Shown here in pieces: positions 5,073-54,920 of a stretch of DNA of 64,000 nucleotides. The notes under the pieces were generated by a model, which saw only the letters and a program-made list of their open reading frames with translations, had not been told where the DNA came from and searched no databases. How positions within the stretch are numbered: position 1 is the first letter of the stretch; every line of letters starts with the position of its first letter. Origin of the DNA: a virus. Its lineage: Duplodnaviria > Heunggongvirae > Uroviricota > Caudoviricetes. Location of the stretch: the IMG/VR virus record IMGVR_UViG_3300018080_000111. The stretch is one strand, 5' to 3'. The position numbers and the translations under genes were made by a program.

Positions 5073-5157
5073 CGGAGCGAGGAGGATTCAAACCCCCAGT
5101 GCTTTTACACACTGTGGTTTTCAAGACCGCCGCCATAAGCCATTCGGCCATCGCTCC
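5073..5157 (-). tRNA. tRNA-Ser(UGA)
   Basis: Acceptor stem GGAGCGA/TCGCTCC, anticodon loop CTTGAAA, long variable arm, T-arm GGGGG-TTTGAAT-CCTCC, discriminator G, no encoded CCA. Confidence 0.92.
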
Positions 5158-13528: not shown

Positions 13529-13639
13529 TCTCCTTCTCCTCTACATAGTTACTACTTTCCTTTGAATTAAAACAAAAAACCCTTCCCCACTTTCATTTCT
13601 GAAAGAAACAACAAATGTTGCCAAAGGGTAATAATTGAC

Positions 13640-13727
13640 TCCTCCCTTGGATATGGCTGGGAGTAACAAAACATAATTTAACTTAACTAAACTTAACGAA
13701 ATGCAACAGAACTCAACTTAGTTCGAT
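13640..13727 (-). ncRNA. Pentamer array B (11 perfect RTT-NN units plus 2 degenerate) with 3' hairpin; putative gapped guide RNA
   Basis: Plus-strand units from 13663: gtaac aaaac ataat ttaac ttaac taaac ttaac gaaat gcaac agaac tcaac; 27 bp (13640-13666) identical to 27698-27724. Confidence 0.8.
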
Positions 13728-13730
13728 GAA

Positions 13731-15695
13731 TTATTTCTGGGATTTTCGGAAAATGGATTTATACTTACTCGCCAAATCATTTCTTAAGGCCTCTTCCTTC
13801 TTTTCTTCAATTTTTTTCTTTCCACCCTTAATCGATCCTTCATCTACCCACCATAACCCCGAGAGAGGTTCTTCCTTCTTCTTTTCAAAGGCCTTTTTCA
13901 TTATATCTATATTTGGTGGGACTTTACATTCTTTCCGGGCCATCTCAACAGATACCACCACAGAGTCAGAACAGTCTTTGGATCCTTCTAAAACCAGTTC
14001 ATCCAGGCTTCCATCCTCTTTGGTAATAGATATGACCGCTTCCTTTGGATGATCTATCTTATTTGTATTGGGATCTTCTTCTAAGTGGGATAATTCAAAA
14101 TGCAGATAACCATGTCGATGACAAACCCAGCGACCATCTTTAACAAGATCATCCCTAAAACTTCGGTAATACTGGGGATTCTTATCAATAGATTCGTATT
14201 TACATTTAATTCCTGCTTTTTCAAGAATCTGGGTTGTGTCGGTACTTGCTAATTTGAGGTCAAAAGTGGCCAATGCTATATTAAACCCATAACTCTTCTT
14301 TAAAAGAATAAGAAATCTCCGTACTTTGGTTAAATCAATTTCATCATCTTCCGGGGCTTTAATTCTCATTACAAAATCTGTTTCTATGACTGGAACTTTA
14401 TCAACCCCAATACTTCCATCCTCCAAAGTTCTATTATTTTCCTTCCATCCAGAAACGCAGGACATTGCCAGTCCATATGCATCATGAGAAAAGGCGATGT
14501 CTCCATGAACATATCTTGGGATGTGCCGAGGAACCCTAATCTTATCCACATTTAGGAAATGAATTAATTCTTTTTCTTCCTCTTTCATCCCCAGATAAAT
14601 AGTGTTCATACTTACTGGATCTTCCTTTTTTGGGTCATAACAGTCCAATAGATATTTTTCGGATTTGAATAGTCGACTTTTCCTTAGGTAGCTGGCACTG
14701 ATACCTGCCAGGTCTCTTAACGCACCCGTGATGTCTTCTTGGAATGCTCTTCGAAAAACCTCGGGAACCTGTATAACTGTGAATCCGTTCGTAGTAGCTT
14801 CCTTTATCTCCTCTTTGGTTTCTATTATTTTAGACGGAGAATATATGTCGCCAATTCTGACTGGAAATTTGGAACAGCCCTCAAATTCCTTATCGTCAGC
14901 TTCCCATTTAGGAATATCAACAATATGGACGGCTTTATGTCCCTTTTTCTTTGCGATGAAAGCATTTACAAAGGATAGGTTTTCCTGCTTTGATGCGACA
15001 ATAAAGAATTTTCCTAAGGATTGTTCATTGATTACAAATCTATCCTCAAATCTACGAAGGGCAGACTCAACCGATTTAATTACTTTCTCCCTTTGTTTTA
15101 TTCCTGCCTTGGGGGAATCAACCTCATCCATAAGGGCTGCAATTACATCCTGGCCTAATTCTGCCTGTGAATAAGGGGAGGCAAGAATGTAATCAAATAG
15201 ATCAAAATGTATCTGAGGTTCCAAATTTCCTGAAATTCTTCCTTTGTTCCTAAACCACTCAGAGGATAGCAGATGGTTCTGGAGAACCCGGAATCCTTTA
15301 CTATCCCCTAGGGTTTTATTTAGGTTAAAAAAGACAATGGCCATTTTTCCGCCTGCCTGTTTGCGATAATATGCAAAAGGGTTACGTAAACAAAGGTGTA
15401 AATACATCACGAATGCTATCCCCAGAATAGCTGCACGGGATTTTCCTATTCCAATGGCACCAGTAAGGACGGGGAGGTATTTGGTGGGTTCACCCATTAG
15501 AAAGGATAGTTCTCTTCTCCACACAGGAAAGATGGCCTTTCCAGGAATCCCATCCTCATTCTTGGTAATTTTTCCTAAGAATTCCTCTCTTCGTAGAAAT
15601 TCCAAAAAGGAGACGGGGGTTTCCTTGTAATGTATTTTTGTGGTTGCTGACGTGAAGGTCGTTAACCAGCGTTGATCAGGATTCTTCTGGTTCAT
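13731..15695 (-). CDS. terL: Terminase large subunit
   Basis: Walker A VLTGAIGIGKS, Walker B ALMDEVD, RNase H-like HGDIAFSHDAYG and KDCSDSV. Confidence 0.85.
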   Translation of the reverse strand: MNQKNPDQRWLTTFTSATTKIHYKETPVSFLEFLRREEFLGKITKNEDGIPGKAIFPVWRRELSFLMGEPTKYLPVLTGAIGIGKSRAAILGIAFVMYLHLCLRNPFAYYRKQAGGKMAIVFFNLNKTLGDSKGFRVLQNHLLSSEWFRNKGRISGNLEPQIHFDLFDYILASPYSQAELGQDVIAALMDEVDSPKAGIKQREKVIKSVESALRRFEDRFVINEQSLGKFFIVASKQENLSFVNAFIAKKKGHKAVHIVDIPKWEADDKEFEGCSKFPVRIGDIYSPSKIIETKEEIKEATTNGFTVIQVPEVFRRAFQEDITGALRDLAGISASYLRKSRLFKSEKYLLDCYDPKKEDPVSMNTIYLGMKEEEKELIHFLNVDKIRVPRHIPRYVHGDIAFSHDAYGLAMSCVSGWKENNRTLEDGSIGVDKVPVIETDFVMRIKAPEDDEIDLTKVRRFLILLKKSYGFNIALATFDLKLASTDTTQILEKAGIKCKYESIDKNPQYYRSFRDDLVKDGRWVCHRHGYLHFELSHLEEDPNTNKIDHPKEAVISITKEDGSLDELVLEGSKDCSDSVVVSVEMARKECKVPPNIDIMKKAFEKKKEEPLSGLWWVDEGSIKGGKKKIEEKKEEALRNDLASKYKSIFRKSQK

Positions 15696-20772: not shown

Positions 20773-20873
20773 CTCGAATTACATCGAATTTCCGGACTGC
20801 CCCAACGAACCGAATTGGAAGAGGAGGCTGTGTACTTCCTCGAATTACATCGAATTTCCGGACTGCCCCAACG
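20773..20873. repeat. Two exact 35-bp direct repeats separated by 31 bp
   Basis: CTCGAATTACATCGAATTTCCGGACTGCCCCAACG at 20773-20807 and 20839-20873. Confidence 0.9.
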
Positions 20874-25624: not shown

Positions 25625-26685
25625 ACCCTCGCTTTTCTCTTCTCAGTTTTATGAAGTTCTTGCCAGGTTTTCCAGATTTCTTCACGAAGTTCTTTCTCCT
25701 TATTATTTTCTTCAATATATTGAATCCACTCTACTCGAGTTTTTTCTTCATCAAATATTTTTATTGTGGTTGTTTTATTCTTTGCTTTTTGATCTCCATT
25801 TTGGAGAATATTAAGAAATTGGATATTTGTGGAGATGTCATCTAGGCCATAGGAGAATAAGATTCGGAATCTTCCTTCTTTGAATGGGGGGGCAACCTTG
25901 TTCTTCGTAATCTTGAATTTTACCCAGATTCCAATTGGGCTTCCTTCCTTGTTTTTAATCCCTGAAAGGTGCTTAAGATGTATTTGAATTGAACTATAAA
26001 ATTCCAGAGCTCTTCCACCGGAGGTAACCTCTTTGTTCGCCGAAAAAGGTCCTGCTCCGATATTATCGCGAGTTTGATCTATACAAAATAGAGTTGTATT
26101 GCTTTCCGCAAGAGCAAATAAATACTTTCGGAATCCTTTGGACATCTGTTTGGCTCTGGAGGTTCCGTACGTCCCGTCCATCATACTTTCTTCCAATTCG
26201 ACCTGGGTGGGCAACGCGCTGACACTGTCAACTACTACTATTTTCGATTCTCTGTTTAGAGGATCCTTCTTTTTGATTTGTCCAGTAGGAGTCTTATTAT
26301 AGATGATATCTGAAAGATATACATCAAAAAACTCCTCTAGGGTGGAAGGATGTCCAACAATCACTTTATCACAATCTAGTCCATATAAGGATGCAAAATG
26401 AGGATCCAAAGTATGTTCTATATCAGCATAATATGCTTTTTTTCCAGAACGTTGGGCATATCCACAAACCATTGTTGCTAAGACGGATTTAGAAGTACTT
26501 CCTCCCCCAAAGACGTGGACTATTCTACCAACCGGAATACCACCCGGATATTGGTTTGCAAGAGCTATATCTAGAGTCGTACATCCGGTAGAAAAGAAAT
26601 TGCGGACTCCCGGAAGTCCAATAATATCTGAGGATTGTTTTGCAGTCTCTTTAATCGTATCTTCTATTTTTTCATTTTTAGACAT
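25618..26685 (-). CDS. recA: RecA/UvsX-like recombinase
   Basis: STGCTTLDIAL, GIPVGRIVHVFGGGSTSKS, VVVDSVSAL, SGGRALEFYSS, KNKVAPPF; start set at MSKNEK. Confidence 0.92.
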   Translation of the reverse strand: MSKNEKIEDTIKETAKQSSDIIGLPGVRNFFSTGCTTLDIALANQYPGGIPVGRIVHVFGGGSTSKSVLATMVCGYAQRSGKKAYYADIEHTLDPHFASLYGLDCDKVIVGHPSTLEEFFDVYLSDIIYNKTPTGQIKKKDPLNRESKIVVVDSVSALPTQVELEESMMDGTYGTSRAKQMSKGFRKYLFALAESNTTLFCIDQTRDNIGAGPFSANKEVTSGGRALEFYSSIQIHLKHLSGIKNKEGSPIGIWVKFKITKNKVAPPFKEGRFRILFSYGLDDISTNIQFLNILQNGDQKAKNKTTTIKIFDEEKTRVEWIQYIEENNKEKELREEIWKTWQELHKTEKRKARVW

Positions 26686-27262
26686 TTTTATCCACCATCC
26701 TCTCAACTGAAAATCTTCCAAAAGTTCCACAGGAAGGTGCACCTGGCCTCCAATGACCTATTCCAATAAATTCACCAGCAACCTGCAAATGTTCCAAAAC
26801 AATTTGTTCATTTAGGGCCCCAGCAATTGTAGGATAAACCACTGTAAGAGTTCCTTCCCATTTAGGGATCTTTGGGTATCTTCTTGAAATCCTTCCTCCA
26901 TCTGGTTTTCCATTAGAGGAGACAAAAGATTTTCTTCCTTGAATTGTATCTTTGGTAAGTTCGGTAACTATATCTCCCTCAATTTGTATCAATCTAATAT
27001 AATGGACTAAACCTTTTCCTCTTTTTCCTCCTCCTACTCTTTTTCCTAAAAGTTTGGCAGCAGGCTCCAGAGTTCTCTTTAGAAGAAAACCTGGGATGAT
27101 TACCTTTCCATCCTCATTGTAATGGGCTCTTTCCTTCCAATACCTCTCTTCAAATTGTTGAGGGGTTTCACCCTCTTCTTTTTCCTGATCGATGTATTGA
27201 TCAAACAGAACAGGACTGATACTTTTAAACTTTATTTTGATTCGTTTAACTAATTCATCCAT
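26678..27262 (-). CDS. Stand-alone RAMP/Cas7-like protein (Vipr-like), putative guide-binding filament subunit
   Basis: N-terminal IKFKSISPVLF, IIPGFLLKRTL (cf. iPGSslKG of Csm3/Cas7 RAMPs), C-terminal Gly-rich loop GEFIGIGHWRP...GTFGRFSVE; no other cas genes in the window. Confidence 0.72.
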   Translation of the reverse strand: MDELVKRIKIKFKSISPVLFDQYIDQEKEEGETPQQFEERYWKERAHYNEDGKVIIPGFLLKRTLEPAAKLLGKRVGGGKRGKGLVHYIRLIQIEGDIVTELTKDTIQGRKSFVSSNGKPDGGRISRRYPKIPKWEGTLTVVYPTIAGALNEQIVLEHLQVAGEFIGIGHWRPGAPSCGTFGRFSVERMVDKNV

Positions 27263-27698
27263 CTTTCTTCTCACTGTAAAAGGCAAATTTCAATAACTTC
27301 TTGAATTCTTTATCTTCTTTCTCTTTCAAACAACTATTCATTAAAGGAAGGAAACTAACCCCATTCTCTTTACAAATAAAGGACTTCTTCTTATCCCTTG
27401 CCATTTGTTTCCTATCCGTAAGATGCTGGAATCCTCCTGGCTCTATTGCACATACTAACTTTCCGTGTCGGAATACTGAAATGTCAATATGTGCATTTTT
27501 GTTCTTCCAGAAACTCTTGTATTTAGATGGCTCAGGAAAGAGTTCATATAGAGGCTGTTTTACAACAAAAGCCAGTTTTGGAAAACTTCGTTGTAGCCAA
27601 CAAACGAACTCCTCAATTGTTTTATTATCCGAATACATAAAGTAAAACCCCGACCAAGCATAATAATATGCAAGCACAATCGCTATCGGAAAATACAT
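27255..27698 (-). CDS. PD-(D/E)XK-like endonuclease (DUF559/DUF2726-like)
   Basis: HIDISV...AIEPGGFQH...QMARDKKKSFICKENGV; the SD is the 3' arm of the array hairpin; the stop overlaps the RAMP gene start. Confidence 0.55.
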   Translation of the reverse strand: MYFPIAIVLAYYYAWSGFYFMYSDNKTIEEFVCWLQRSFPKLAFVVKQPLYELFPEPSKYKSFWKNKNAHIDISVFRHGKLVCAIEPGGFQHLTDRKQMARDKKKSFICKENGVSFLPLMNSCLKEKEDKEFKKLLKFAFYSEKKDG

Positions 27699-27800
27699 CC
27701 TCCCTTGGATATGGCTGGGAGTAATAAAATGGAACGGAACGCAACACAACTTAACTTAATTTAAAACAATGCAACTTAACAAAACTTAATTCAACATAAT
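27698..27800 (-). ncRNA. Pentamer array A (16 RTT-NN units) with 3' hairpin; putative gapped guide RNA
   Basis: 27721-27800 parses exactly into 16 NN-AAY units on the plus strand (one unit ttaaa), followed on the minus strand by the CTCCC-N12-GGGAG hairpin shared with array B. Confidence 0.85.
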
Positions 27801-52266: not shown

Positions 52267-53747
52267 TTTTCTACTCCCCCATACTCTTGAATATAGGCCA
52301 TAACTTCTGTCACGAAGTCAAACCTCTCAGATCGGTTCTTTAAAGTTCTAGGTTCCACCGAGCTCTTCATAATCAAATCCACAACCAGACAGGTATTTTT
52401 TTGTCCTTTTCGATGGATTCGTCCCGTAGTTTGCTTCCGGGACAATGGAGAAGGAGTCGGACTAAAATTAAGTATAGTGCTTGATGCGGTTCCATCCCAT
52501 CCTTCCGCCCCGGCCCCCCGTTGGACTAAGATACATTTTACTTTCTCTTCTTGAGTAAATCTTTTTACGCTTTCGGTTCGTTCCTTTAAATCTTGCCCTC
52601 CATAGATTCTTGAATACAAATATTTTTCTTTTTCCAAGGCCCTTTGGATCATATTAACTTCCTCCTTGAAGTAATAGAATATTATAACTTTCCCCGAAAT
52701 ATCCTCCAGGAAGTCTATTAAGGATTCTATCTTTGGGTTTTGTTTTAGGTAATATGTTTGAGTCGGTCCATCCTCTGTCTTGTAATATAGAAAGCCTAAA
52801 GGTAGTTGCCTAAGAAGTCGGGACTTAAGTTTTTTAAACTTATCTTCATCCTCATTCAATTCTGTAGGTTCCAATTTTACAATGGTTCCGTTTAGGGTAA
52901 TAGATGGTTGAGTTATTATCGCGTCTTGTAGTTTCAGATACCCTTTTGATGGATTTACCTCCCGGACTATTTCCTGAATCTCTGGAAGATCAAAGCATTC
53001 TTCTCTGTCGAAGCTGATGGATGTTTTTGAAATTTGTTCCAGGATTTTTTCTTTGGCTCCCTTTTTAAGTTTCCAGTCAAATACCACGGGGTAAAAATAC
53101 CTATTCCTATAAGCAAAGAAACTGGTCCCCAGGGTTCTTCCGAGATCAATCACTCTATAGATATTAAAGGCTTCGAGAAGAGAATTGTCAATTGGTGTTC
53201 CGGTAAGTCCTATTACATTCTTTGATAGCTTGGATAACTGATGACAGATAATACTTTGAAGGGATTTGTAACTTTTGCATTTATGAATCTCATCCAGTAT
53301 TATACAATCAAATTTGTGGATGAAGGAGGAGTAATTGATCTTCCAACCTTTTCCTTTCATCAATTTACAATATACTGTTTTTAATCCTTCATAATTGATT
53401 ATAAAAATATCCCTTTTCTTTTTTAATAGAGACCGACGATGTTTTCCTGATCCTAAAAGGAATTCATGAGAGTAGTCAGTATACTTGGAGATATCCCTTT
53501 CCCAGGCACTAAAAGCAGAGGAGGGACAAACTACCAGAATTTTCTTATTTTCCCACAGTTGAGTTGTCCAGAGAGCCGTGAGGGTTTTCCCTGTACCAAC
53601 ACCATGCAAAAATGCACAACGGGAGGAGGCCGCTGCGAAGGCCATGGAAATAAGTTGATGTCTCATCGGGGATAGTTTAAATGGGAAATCCCCAAAGATA
53701 TCATCTAACTCTTCCTTTATCAGTTTTTTATAGTCGAAGGTTCTCAT
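52263..53747 (-). CDS. SNF2-like superfamily 2 helicase
   Basis: HGVGTGKT, INYEGL, ILDEIH, LTGTP, QTTGRIHRKGQ. Confidence 0.88.
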   Translation of the reverse strand: MRTFDYKKLIKEELDDIFGDFPFKLSPMRHQLISMAFAAASSRCAFLHGVGTGKTLTALWTTQLWENKKILVVCPSSAFSAWERDISKYTDYSHEFLLGSGKHRRSLLKKKRDIFIINYEGLKTVYCKLMKGKGWKINYSSFIHKFDCIILDEIHKCKSYKSLQSIICHQLSKLSKNVIGLTGTPIDNSLLEAFNIYRVIDLGRTLGTSFFAYRNRYFYPVVFDWKLKKGAKEKILEQISKTSISFDREECFDLPEIQEIVREVNPSKGYLKLQDAIITQPSITLNGTIVKLEPTELNEDEDKFKKLKSRLLRQLPLGFLYYKTEDGPTQTYYLKQNPKIESLIDFLEDISGKVIIFYYFKEEVNMIQRALEKEKYLYSRIYGGQDLKERTESVKRFTQEEKVKCILVQRGAGAEGWDGTASSTILNFSPTPSPLSRKQTTGRIHRKGQKNTCLVVDLIMKSSVEPRTLKNRSERFDFVTEVMAYIQEYGGVEK

Positions 53748-53766
53748 TATCTTTTACTACAAATAG

Positions 53767-53829
53767 AATTTGTGGACGAAGGAGGAGAATTTGGTCTTCC
53801 AACCTTTTCCTTTCATCAATTTACAATAT
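53767..53829 (-). repeat. 63-bp near-copy (59/63) of helicase segment 53311-53373 at the TnpB guide position
   Basis: The 35 TnpB-proximal bp (53795-53829) are identical to 53339-53373; 4 mismatches lie distal. Confidence 0.9.
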
Positions 53830-53861
53830 TCGGATCTTTTCTTTTCAACAGGCTCCGAATG

Positions 53862-54920
53862 TTATTCTATTCCTGTAAGGAACCGATTCAAGATATTCAA
53901 AGACGCGTTGTAATCTGCATCCGATGTGTATCCACACTCCATACACTTAAATACCTCACCTTTACGATTCTCTTTATGGATACTTCCGCAACGATTACAT
54001 TTCTGACTCGTATAGGCTGGATTTACTTTATGACATTGGACGCCAACTACCTCACAAGCTTGTTCCAGTCTTCTTAGGAAGTACGGGTAAGTCCATCTCT
54101 GTAATTTGTTCATCACCTTCCTGGCCACTTTTTCTTTAGTCCTTTTCTTTATGCCCTTCAGATTTTCAACCACTATCCCCTTTAGATCTGAAAGCTTAAT
54201 CTTTTTAACTTCCCTATTGATATATTCATCTCGCTCTTTTAGAGCACGATAGAAAGCCTTACTTCCTTGCTTCTTCCTTGATATCTTTTCAATCTTTTGT
54301 ACAAGTTCCTCCCCAACCATCTGTCCTGTGGACAATACGGCCAACTTCTTGTATCCACAATCTAGGCCGATCATCTCTCCTTCCTCTTTTGGTTCCGGAG
54401 CAGCCTTCTCAAAGAAGAGGTCTCCAAATAGGTCAGACCCCTTTCTCCTAATTCTAATGGACTTCTTTAATTTCCAATCTTCTTGAATAAACTTATTGAA
54501 ATGCTTGTGCTTTTTGGTTGGAATTTTTACAAAACACTGCTTCCCAGATCTCCTACCCATTCCTTTAATAGTAATCCATAGATCAAAAGAGTTCTTTCCT
54601 TCTTGAATCACAACGAATCGTTGATCAAGTTCAAAACTTTTTCCACTAAAAGTGGGTTTCGTTTTCTTCTTTCTCTGCCTTTGAGATTTTACTATATGGA
54701 GAGCAGAGCATGCTGCTCCCTGTCTTGCGGTAAATGATAGGGGCGAATCCACCTGATCCAGGACCTCTCGTTCCACGAACGAACCGGTAAATCTTTTTAT
54801 TTCCCATAGAGTATCTATATATTGATTAACTGCTTCAGTGTATCTATCTAGGAAATCAAGAACCTTGTTCTTCTTTCCTATATTACAATAATTTAGATTT
54901 ATTGTAGATTTTCTGATCAT
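53862..54920 (-). CDS. tnpB: TnpB/Cas12f-like RNA-guided nuclease with no tnpA
   Basis: RuvC-I IGLDCG, RuvC-II VVENL, Zn finger CNRC..CMEC, RuvC-III DADYNAS; all three acidic catalytic residues present. Confidence 0.9.
   Translation of the reverse strand: MIRKSTINLNYCNIGKKNKVLDFLDRYTEAVNQYIDTLWEIKRFTGSFVEREVLDQVDSPLSFTARQGAACSALHIVKSQRQRKKKTKPTFSGKSFELDQRFVVIQEGKNSFDLWITIKGMGRRSGKQCFVKIPTKKHKHFNKFIQEDWKLKKSIRIRRKGSDLFGDLFFEKAAPEPKEEGEMIGLDCGYKKLAVLSTGQMVGEELVQKIEKISRKKQGSKAFYRALKERDEYINREVKKIKLSDLKGIVVENLKGIKKRTKEKVARKVMNKLQRWTYPYFLRRLEQACEVVGVQCHKVNPAYTSQKCNRCGSIHKENRKGEVFKCMECGYTSDADYNASLNILNRFLTGIE

Follow-up and report, generated by a model that had tools for sequence, protein, structure and literature searches.

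A Putative VIPR Guide Beside a Poorly Matched Allele of Its Probable Terminase Target in a Caudoviricetes Genome

Introduction

VIPR systems were described in 2026 preprints (bioRxiv 10.64898/2026.04.26.720920, 10.64898/2026.04.26.720927, and 10.64898/2026.10.15.759431), and their central protein, Vipr, is a small RAMP that polymerises on a guide RNA (vrRNA) of 9–16 pentamers, each made up of a variable NN and a constant GGY, with an invariant structured tail at the 3′ end. Double-stranded DNA is read by the filament as NNx, of which x usually falls on the wobble base, and the natural targets are competing phages and satellites. VIPR has no protospacer-adjacent motif (PAM); its authors adopted a match cut-off of 80%, which no self match reached. 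Wobble skipping is said in these papers to block synonymous escape, and targets to escape only by protein change; one of them (bioRxiv 10.64898/2026.10.15.759431) states that escape requires amino-acid-determining changes. Here, we describe a predicted VIPR system in a 64,000-nt stretch of a Caudoviricetes virus (IMG/VR record IMGVR_UViG_3300018080_000111), the whole of which is called the window below. One of its two guide arrays, vrRNA-B, is located behind the gene of a probable large terminase (terL), and the last codons of this gene form a near-copy of its predicted target.

A first-pass annotation of the window had proposed that two silent codon-family differences between this guide and the resident gene are a signature of selection against self-targeting. 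The account that we lean towards is instead that the guide adjoins a pre-existing, unreadable allele of its target, so that the carrier is spared, and that the guide did not drive the silent recoding.

Comparison with Described Systems

The closest described relative is the type II VIPR of Escherichia phage SUSP1, which is likewise a phage-borne minimal locus, in which a single accessory gene accompanies a small Cas7-like RAMP. The window contains vipr and a single accessory gene, and no cas genes or CRISPR array were found in it (Table 1). A profile of 30 homologues of the 194-aa open reading frame (ORF) matched the PDB chain 36pp_D, “SUSP1 Vipr protein”, with an E-value of 4e-10, and the alignment ran nearly full length from residues 25–190 of the query profile to 36–190 of the chain. 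An AlphaFold2 model of this ORF, built with the alignment (pLDDT 89), matched the type VII Cas7 and Csm3 folds with E-values of 1e-9 to 1e-6. The guides are similarly organized in the two systems, with variable NN and a fixed trinucleotide in each of 9–16 pentamers and an invariant structured tail at the 3′ end. The two arrays of the window comprise 11 and 15 pentamers and share an identical 25-nt tail. Two loci with Vipr relatives, L078 and L080, carry the same accessory gene plus four further NN-RTT arrays of 11–15 units, of which the tails retain the hairpin with compensatory stem changes; with that of the window included, the stems are CUCCC/GGGAG, CUCCCC/GGGGAG, CCCAC/GUGGG, CUGCC/GGCAG, and CUCUC/GAGAG. 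Reading with a 1-nt skip, in frame and with the skipped base on the wobble position, predicted targets in competing mobile elements, and the lack of a self hit of at least 80% are further features in common.

The locus also differs from the SUSP1 type in several respects. The fixed trinucleotide is R-U-U here and G-G-Y there, since the units of all six arrays read NN-[G/A, rarely U]-U-U; the preprints do mention that some VIPR types have “a related consensus” instead of GGY. The tail is a simple hairpin here and a pseudoknot in SUSP1, the accessory protein has a DUF2726-like fold, and the guide adjoins a near-copy of its own target. As judged from sequence, the system is thus a VIPR system with a fixed R-U-U in place of G-G-Y, and vrRNA-B, next to the terminase gene and 14 kb from vipr, is a solo guide. 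The G-loop of Vipr (residues ~167–173 of 194) reads GIGHWRPG, of which the His is invariant in 30 homologues, whereas that of SUSP1 Vipr reads GVGDWRPR (GHWRP versus GDWRP). In the triplex VIPR paper, this Asp is said to recognise the first G of GGY, so that its replacement by His may accompany the shift of the repeat trinucleotide to RUU.

The Vipr relative of L080 (9816–10640) is more distant, with 51% identity, and has two head-to-tail guides upstream of vipr and one downstream. Each of them ends in AC, a UUCG-loop hairpin, and GAAGGAG, so that the 3′ part of the tail resembles a Shine-Dalgarno sequence for the gene that follows. In the loci compared, no site matched a guide of L078 or L080 at 80% or more, and these guides gave no further cases of self and non-self sites.

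Solo (orphan) vrRNAs placed apart from vipr have been reported (bioRxiv 10.64898/2026.10.15.759431), together with vrRNA-targeting vrRNAs for which the carrier copy is matched less well than the copies of rivals, avoiding autoimmunity. The present arrangement resembles both, but the window genome still has vipr, and, rather than vipr, a further vrRNA, or a satellite, the guide is predicted to target a packaging gene in sibling phages. CRISPR and VIPR, both RNA-guided, share the need to leave the carrier's own DNA untouched. CRISPR achieves this discrimination by a PAM or by pairing with the repeat flank, whereas PAM-less VIPR must rely on mismatches in the read positions, and codon-family differences can therefore matter.

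Match of vrRNA-B to Sibling and Resident Terminase Genes

All genes around the footprint are encoded on the minus strand. On this strand, the 3′ end of the 654-aa ORF reads AAT GAT TTG GCG AGT AAG TAT AAA TCC ATT TTC CGA AAA TCC CAG AAA TAA, giving the C-terminus N-D-L-A-S-K-Y-K-S-I-F-R-K-S-Q-K, and the array starts eleven nt past the stop codon, 35 nt from the footprint. The dinucleotides of vrRNA-B are AA GA CT GC TC AA TA AA AA AT TT, and 8 of these 11 units match codon positions 1–2 of residues 639–649. The three mismatched units (guide/gene) are CT/TT at Leu641, TC/AG at Ser643, and AA/TC at residue 647, where the guide specifies Asn or Lys and the gene has Ser. The first two are synonymous and the third is not. 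These readings agree in every detail with the first-pass annotation, which had flagged TTG GCG AGT opposite the guide and counted two of the three mismatches as silent; its remark that only Leu, Ser, and Arg permit a synonymous change at codon positions 1–2 follows from translation table 11. The footprint has no six-fold codons other than Leu641 and Ser643, and both belong to the other family than the guide, which thereby loses three read bases while the protein remains unchanged.

The homologous codons of sibling phages match far better. In L008, the closest sibling (87% protein identity), and in L074 (72% identity, obtained from a different run), the 11 codons match all 22 read bases of the guide; the match is 21/22 in L075 and the L001 group and 20/22 in L012/L013. 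None of these genes has an array behind it. Under skips of 0, 2, or 3 nt, the sibling loci gave no more than 17/22, so the description of the array as a wobble-skipping guide was borne out. The resident copy matches 17 of the 22 read bases (77%), which is under the published cut-off of 80%. Counted by whole units, it is the only site in the window with 8/11 on either strand, the next best having 6, and it is in frame; counted by bases, it stands at chance level, as unit-shuffled guides gave a mean best of 16.1 and a maximum of 18 read bases in the window. The relatedness of site and guide is shown by the 22/22 match of the homologous 11 codons in two sibling lineages. The best self matches of the two guides within the window are 17/22 and 23/30, both 77%, and no self target of at least 80% was found.

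The 11-codon tails fall into two classes. The M class, with Leu CTN, Ser TCN, and Asn AAY, is read at 91–100%, and the E class, with Leu TTR, paired in most lineages with Ser AGY, is read at 68–77%. Both alleles encode Leu-Ala-Ser, yet one is read at 22/22 and the other at 17/22, and two of the three unread units are silent. It is hence plausible, as far as pairing can tell, that the resident copy escapes the guide, as had been suggested, and by this comparison the Leu/Ser family differences genuinely contribute to making the E allele unreadable, and do so without altering the protein.

The arrays are authentic parts of this genome. Both occur at approximately 20-fold depth, with zero differences, in Logan contigs of a public sediment-metagenome run, which is an independent assembly; an assembly artefact or planted sequence is thereby ruled out, although the run may derive from the same sample as the window and hence does not count as a separate occurrence. 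The runs listed as containing the arrays included none of RNA. Tandem Repeats Finder gave no hits on the window, where no tandem or CRISPR-type repeats were found, and Rfam matched only the tRNA and assigned no known RNA class to the arrays. The exact 25-nt tail had no match in IMG/VR or JGI metagenomes, the complete degenerate target patterns of the two arrays had none in IMG/VR, and blastn of the region against GenBank phages found none. A diversity-generating retroelement was dropped as a candidate because its template and variable repeats have equal period, while the periods here are 5 and 3, as was translation of the array in 5-nt steps, in which unit 7 would read as a stop. The early ideas of a pac or terminase-binding site and of a protein-guided homing endonuclease were also dropped.

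Codon States in Array-Less Relatives

The first-pass annotation had expected the codon-family switch to co-segregate with the array. Such co-segregation was not observed. L009/L010, covered over 26 kb that are syntenic with both array sites and contain no array, vipr, or vap, have TTA and AGT; L077 has TTA and AGC, and L076 has TTG, both without an array behind the terminase gene. The same codon families as in the window, TTR and AGY, are therefore found in the array-less L009/L010 and L077, an outcome that the first-pass annotation had itself named as refuting its inference. The E state thus occurs beyond the genome with the array, and it probably predates the insertion. The part of the earlier claim that stands is that the resident copy is predicted to go unread, partly through silent differences, while the claim that selection against self-targeting left its signature in this genome is not supported.

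A protein tree, from which the last 25 residues were excluded, gave (L009,(window,L008)) with support of 100/99, and L074, L075, L012, and L077 form the sister clade. With L009 as the outgroup, the Leu641 and Ser643 differences and the family change at Arg638 are specific to L008, and only N647S and the family of Arg650 are specific to the window. In each of the two main clades, the distribution of E and M alleles disagrees with the gene tree, and within an allele class the tail shows virtually no family switches (0–1), even between lineages that are 30% apart.

The baseline of such differences is high for Leu. Between the window and L008, 21 of 51 conserved Leu (41%) differ in codon family, which indicates gene-wide saturation, compared with 4 of 34 conserved Ser (12%). 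The mean is 1.85 mismatched units per 11 codons; 31% of 11-codon windows have at least three mismatched units, 13.5% have at least two silent family switches, and among those with exactly two six-fold codons both are switched in 7%. The last 17 codons are nevertheless distinctive within the gene, being the only place with four family switches (0.8% of windows), which occupy four of the five conserved six-fold codons, and having 19 nt differences despite 15 of 17 identical residues (0.7% of comparable windows, the gene maximum).

Origin of the Mismatched Allele

In the mechanism that we propose by analogy with the published systems, Vipr protomers would coat the NN-RUU repeats, one per unit, hiding RUU and presenting NN. 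Reading double-stranded DNA in the pattern NNxNNx, where x falls on the wobble base of each codon, the filament would bind the last codons of the terminase gene in co-infecting sibling phages. Transcription might then be silenced there, or the DNA damaged, given the nuclease-fold accessory protein. With the guide gene 35 nt from an E allele, the carrier would be spared, and the guide would most likely persist only in linkage with such a pre-existing mismatched allele. The E allele itself could have originated by drift or by escape from guides of this kind.

Several observations weigh against this account. The ancestral state of Ser643 is ambiguous, since one switch with a reversal and two parallel switches tie in parsimony and these two histories have similar branch-length products; a Ser643 switch on the window phage's own branch is thus possible. 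The footprint lies in the gene-wide maximum of switching, which inheritance of an old allele predicts only if the tail had a separate history, and signs of recombination at the wobble sites were not significant (2 versus 0.69 expected, P 0.15). Published VIPR work states no mismatch tolerance, so that a site read at 77% may still be bound, or one read at 91% may not be. Finally, the collections hold ten sibling lineages in total, and the tests are post hoc and concern two codons in a substitution-tolerant C-terminal tail.

A broader proposal, which we put forward tentatively and consider unlikely as it stands, is that the terminase tail is a susceptible/resistant polymorphism kept by VIPR conflict, with Leu/Ser (and Arg) switches as a recurrent silent route for targets and carriers alike. 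Its explicit form, in which the E allele arose repeatedly (in the window phage, L009, and L077) as a silent escape from vrRNA-B-like guides and VIPR has maintained the polymorphism, appears less likely still. Across the ten lineages, Ser643 requires three family changes on the tree, which ties it with one other of the 26 conserved Ser columns for the highest number, and Leu641 requires four, within the top 6 of 39 conserved Leu columns. In quartets, the discordant state that groups the window with L009 and L008 with the others was found at three footprint sites at positions 1 and 2 against 0.39 expected (P ~0.007). The crossing of the tree by E and M in both clades and the near absence of within-class tail switches at 30% divergence are in the same direction. 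However, ten lineages analysed by post hoc tests are a small basis, the classes are defined by these very codons, so that uniformity within them is partly circular, and the tolerance of the C-terminal tail, which has Ala, Thr, and Lys at neighbouring or the same positions, would ease Ser family changes in a guide-free manner. Short-tract recombination would yield the same pattern, although a sliding-window scan found no switch of the nearest relative that might point to a source of the discordant tail. These footprint signals are a hint of a conflict-driven or recombinational history, not proof of one.

The reading of the first-pass annotation, in which the guide arrived and self-targeting then selected silent CTN-to-TTG and TCN-to-AGT changes in the phage's own terminase gene, is in our view decidedly doubtful. 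Both six-fold footprint codons are indeed switched, in the tail that shows the most switching in the gene relative to L008, N647S is derived on the window branch, and a nuclease-fold vap product, if the predicted fold is taken at face value, would make self-targeting costly. If the ancestor of the window phage and L008 matched the guide, three unit changes on the short window branch would also be improbable by chance (P ~0.02). These points are countered by the codon families of the array-less L009/L010 and L077 and by the L008-specific polarity of the Leu and Ser differences. Moreover, the Leu family is saturated and both six-fold codons are switched in 7–13% of the windows that contain two, two of the four tail switches (R638 and R650) lie outside the footprint, and the self mismatches of vrRNA-A are all non-synonymous. 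The weakest reading, that there is no discrimination because vrRNA-B is inactive or also binds the resident site (e.g., timing downstream transcription) and the mismatches are neutral divergence, accommodates the three mismatched units at the L008 baseline, the distance of 14 kb from vipr, and the position of the site at the extreme 3′ end of the gene, at which a roadblock would act chiefly on the genes downstream, but is very improbable in view of the 22/22 match kept to two lineages with protein divergences of 13% and 28% and with saturated wobble positions, which argues for selection on the guide, the identity of its tail to that of vrRNA-A, and the lack of self hits of at least 80% in published systems.

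By the comparison of E and M tails, an escape route through six-fold codons exists at the locus, while its origin by guide selection is not established. Leu, Ser, and Arg are the one exception that the genetic code leaves to wobble-skip immunity, and this locus would be a natural example. The published VIPR papers make no mention of it, which makes it a modest addition to what is known of these systems. Recurrent switching of six-fold codons, if true, contradicts the published claim that wobble skipping closes synonymous escape; if general, it bears on the durability of VIPR targeting, on the sites that natural guides should avoid, and on the design of programmed VIPR guides.

The Second Guide and recA

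The near-cognate self-site of vrRNA-A lies in the phage's own recA/UvsX-like gene (Table 1), and all four mismatched units change the amino acid. Over its 15 units, vrRNA-A matches the recA genes of eight Opitutia/Verrucomicrobiota metagenome-assembled genomes (L081–L088) at 26/30 in frame, and the 13 tail-proximal units match exactly (peptide RTKLKAVKNKVAPPF). This exceeds the match to the phage's own recA (23/30) and to the sibling phage RecA motifs examined, and may mark a host and a host-directed guide. A search of IMG/VR for recA relatives found none, and no VIPR genes were found at the recA site of the siblings.

Both guides are located within 2 kb of their own target homologue, at 35 nt for the terminase tail and 1.8 kb for recA. 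By its layout, this guide-beside-target arrangement appears homing-like, and it is not described in the VIPR papers.

Free-standing homing endonucleases of T4-like phages, e.g., segG and mobE, bring about intronless homing and marker exclusion. There, too, a weapon gene occupies the intergenic spacer beside a resistant allele, and siblings without the insert are attacked. The recognition here would be RNA-guided, and the likeness is one of layout, not of demonstrated cleavage, repair, or co-conversion; high similarity to L008 resumes immediately downstream of the array B insert. In array-less siblings, the spacer behind the terminase gene is just 0–52 nt.

Other Features of the Window

Table 1. 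Positions of the guide arrays, their self-sites, and other features in the window.
Feature	Position	Strand	Description
Probable large terminase (terL)	13731..15695	−	654 aa; PF27249 MJ0330_N family; Walker A and B motifs
Nine bases flagged by the first-pass annotation	13767..13775	−	Leu641 TTG, Ala642 GCG, Ser643 AGT of the probable large terminase; opposite guide units 3–5 (CT, GC, TC)
Near-cognate self-site of vrRNA-B	13749..13781	−	Codons N639–F649; 8/11 units, 17/22 read bases match
Ser647 TCC, third mismatched unit	13755..13757	−	Guide AA; siblings Asn AAY; the one footprint mismatch clearly derived on the own branch
vrRNA-B repeat tract	13665..13719	−	11 pentamers NN-[G/A]TT
vrRNA-B 3′ tail	13640..13664	−	25 nt: AC + CUCCC/GGGAG hairpin + GA; identical to vrRNA-A tail
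Whole insertion relative to array-less siblings	13573..13730	−	Contains guide, tail, and branched hairpin then U-run
vipr	26678..27262	−	194-aa Cas7-like RAMP, homologous to SUSP1 Vipr protein
vap-like accessory gene	27255..27698	−	147 aa, DUF2726-like, nuclease-related fold; overlaps vipr start; kept beside vipr in L078 and L080
vrRNA-A	27698..27797	−	15 units (27723–27797) + tail (27698–27722)
Near-cognate self-site of vrRNA-A in own recA/UvsX-like gene	25882..25926	−	11/15 units, 23/30 bases (77%)
tRNA-Ser, anticodon UGA	5073–5157	−	Reads UCN; only tRNA in the window
TnpB-like ORF	53862–54920	−	Cas12f1-like TNB domain, E 9e-20

The 654-aa protein had no PHROG, classic Pfam terminase, or PDB sequence match, and the name terL is used because of the PF27249 cluster labels, the Walker motifs, and the inteins in homologues. 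Many of these homologues (L001/L002/L014/L015; P0006, P0015, P0033, and others) contain an intein that has an HNH or LAGLIDADG-type domain, at lengths of 1040–1140 aa, which fits a conserved and frequently invaded phage gene.

A perfect 35-nt direct repeat (20773–20807 and 20839–20873), spaced by 66 nt, was found in an intergenic region, and the Logan contigs break exactly there. Adjoining the TnpB-like ORF, a 77-nt segment (53306–53382 / 53762–53838) shares 87% identity with part of the adjacent SNF2-type helicase gene.

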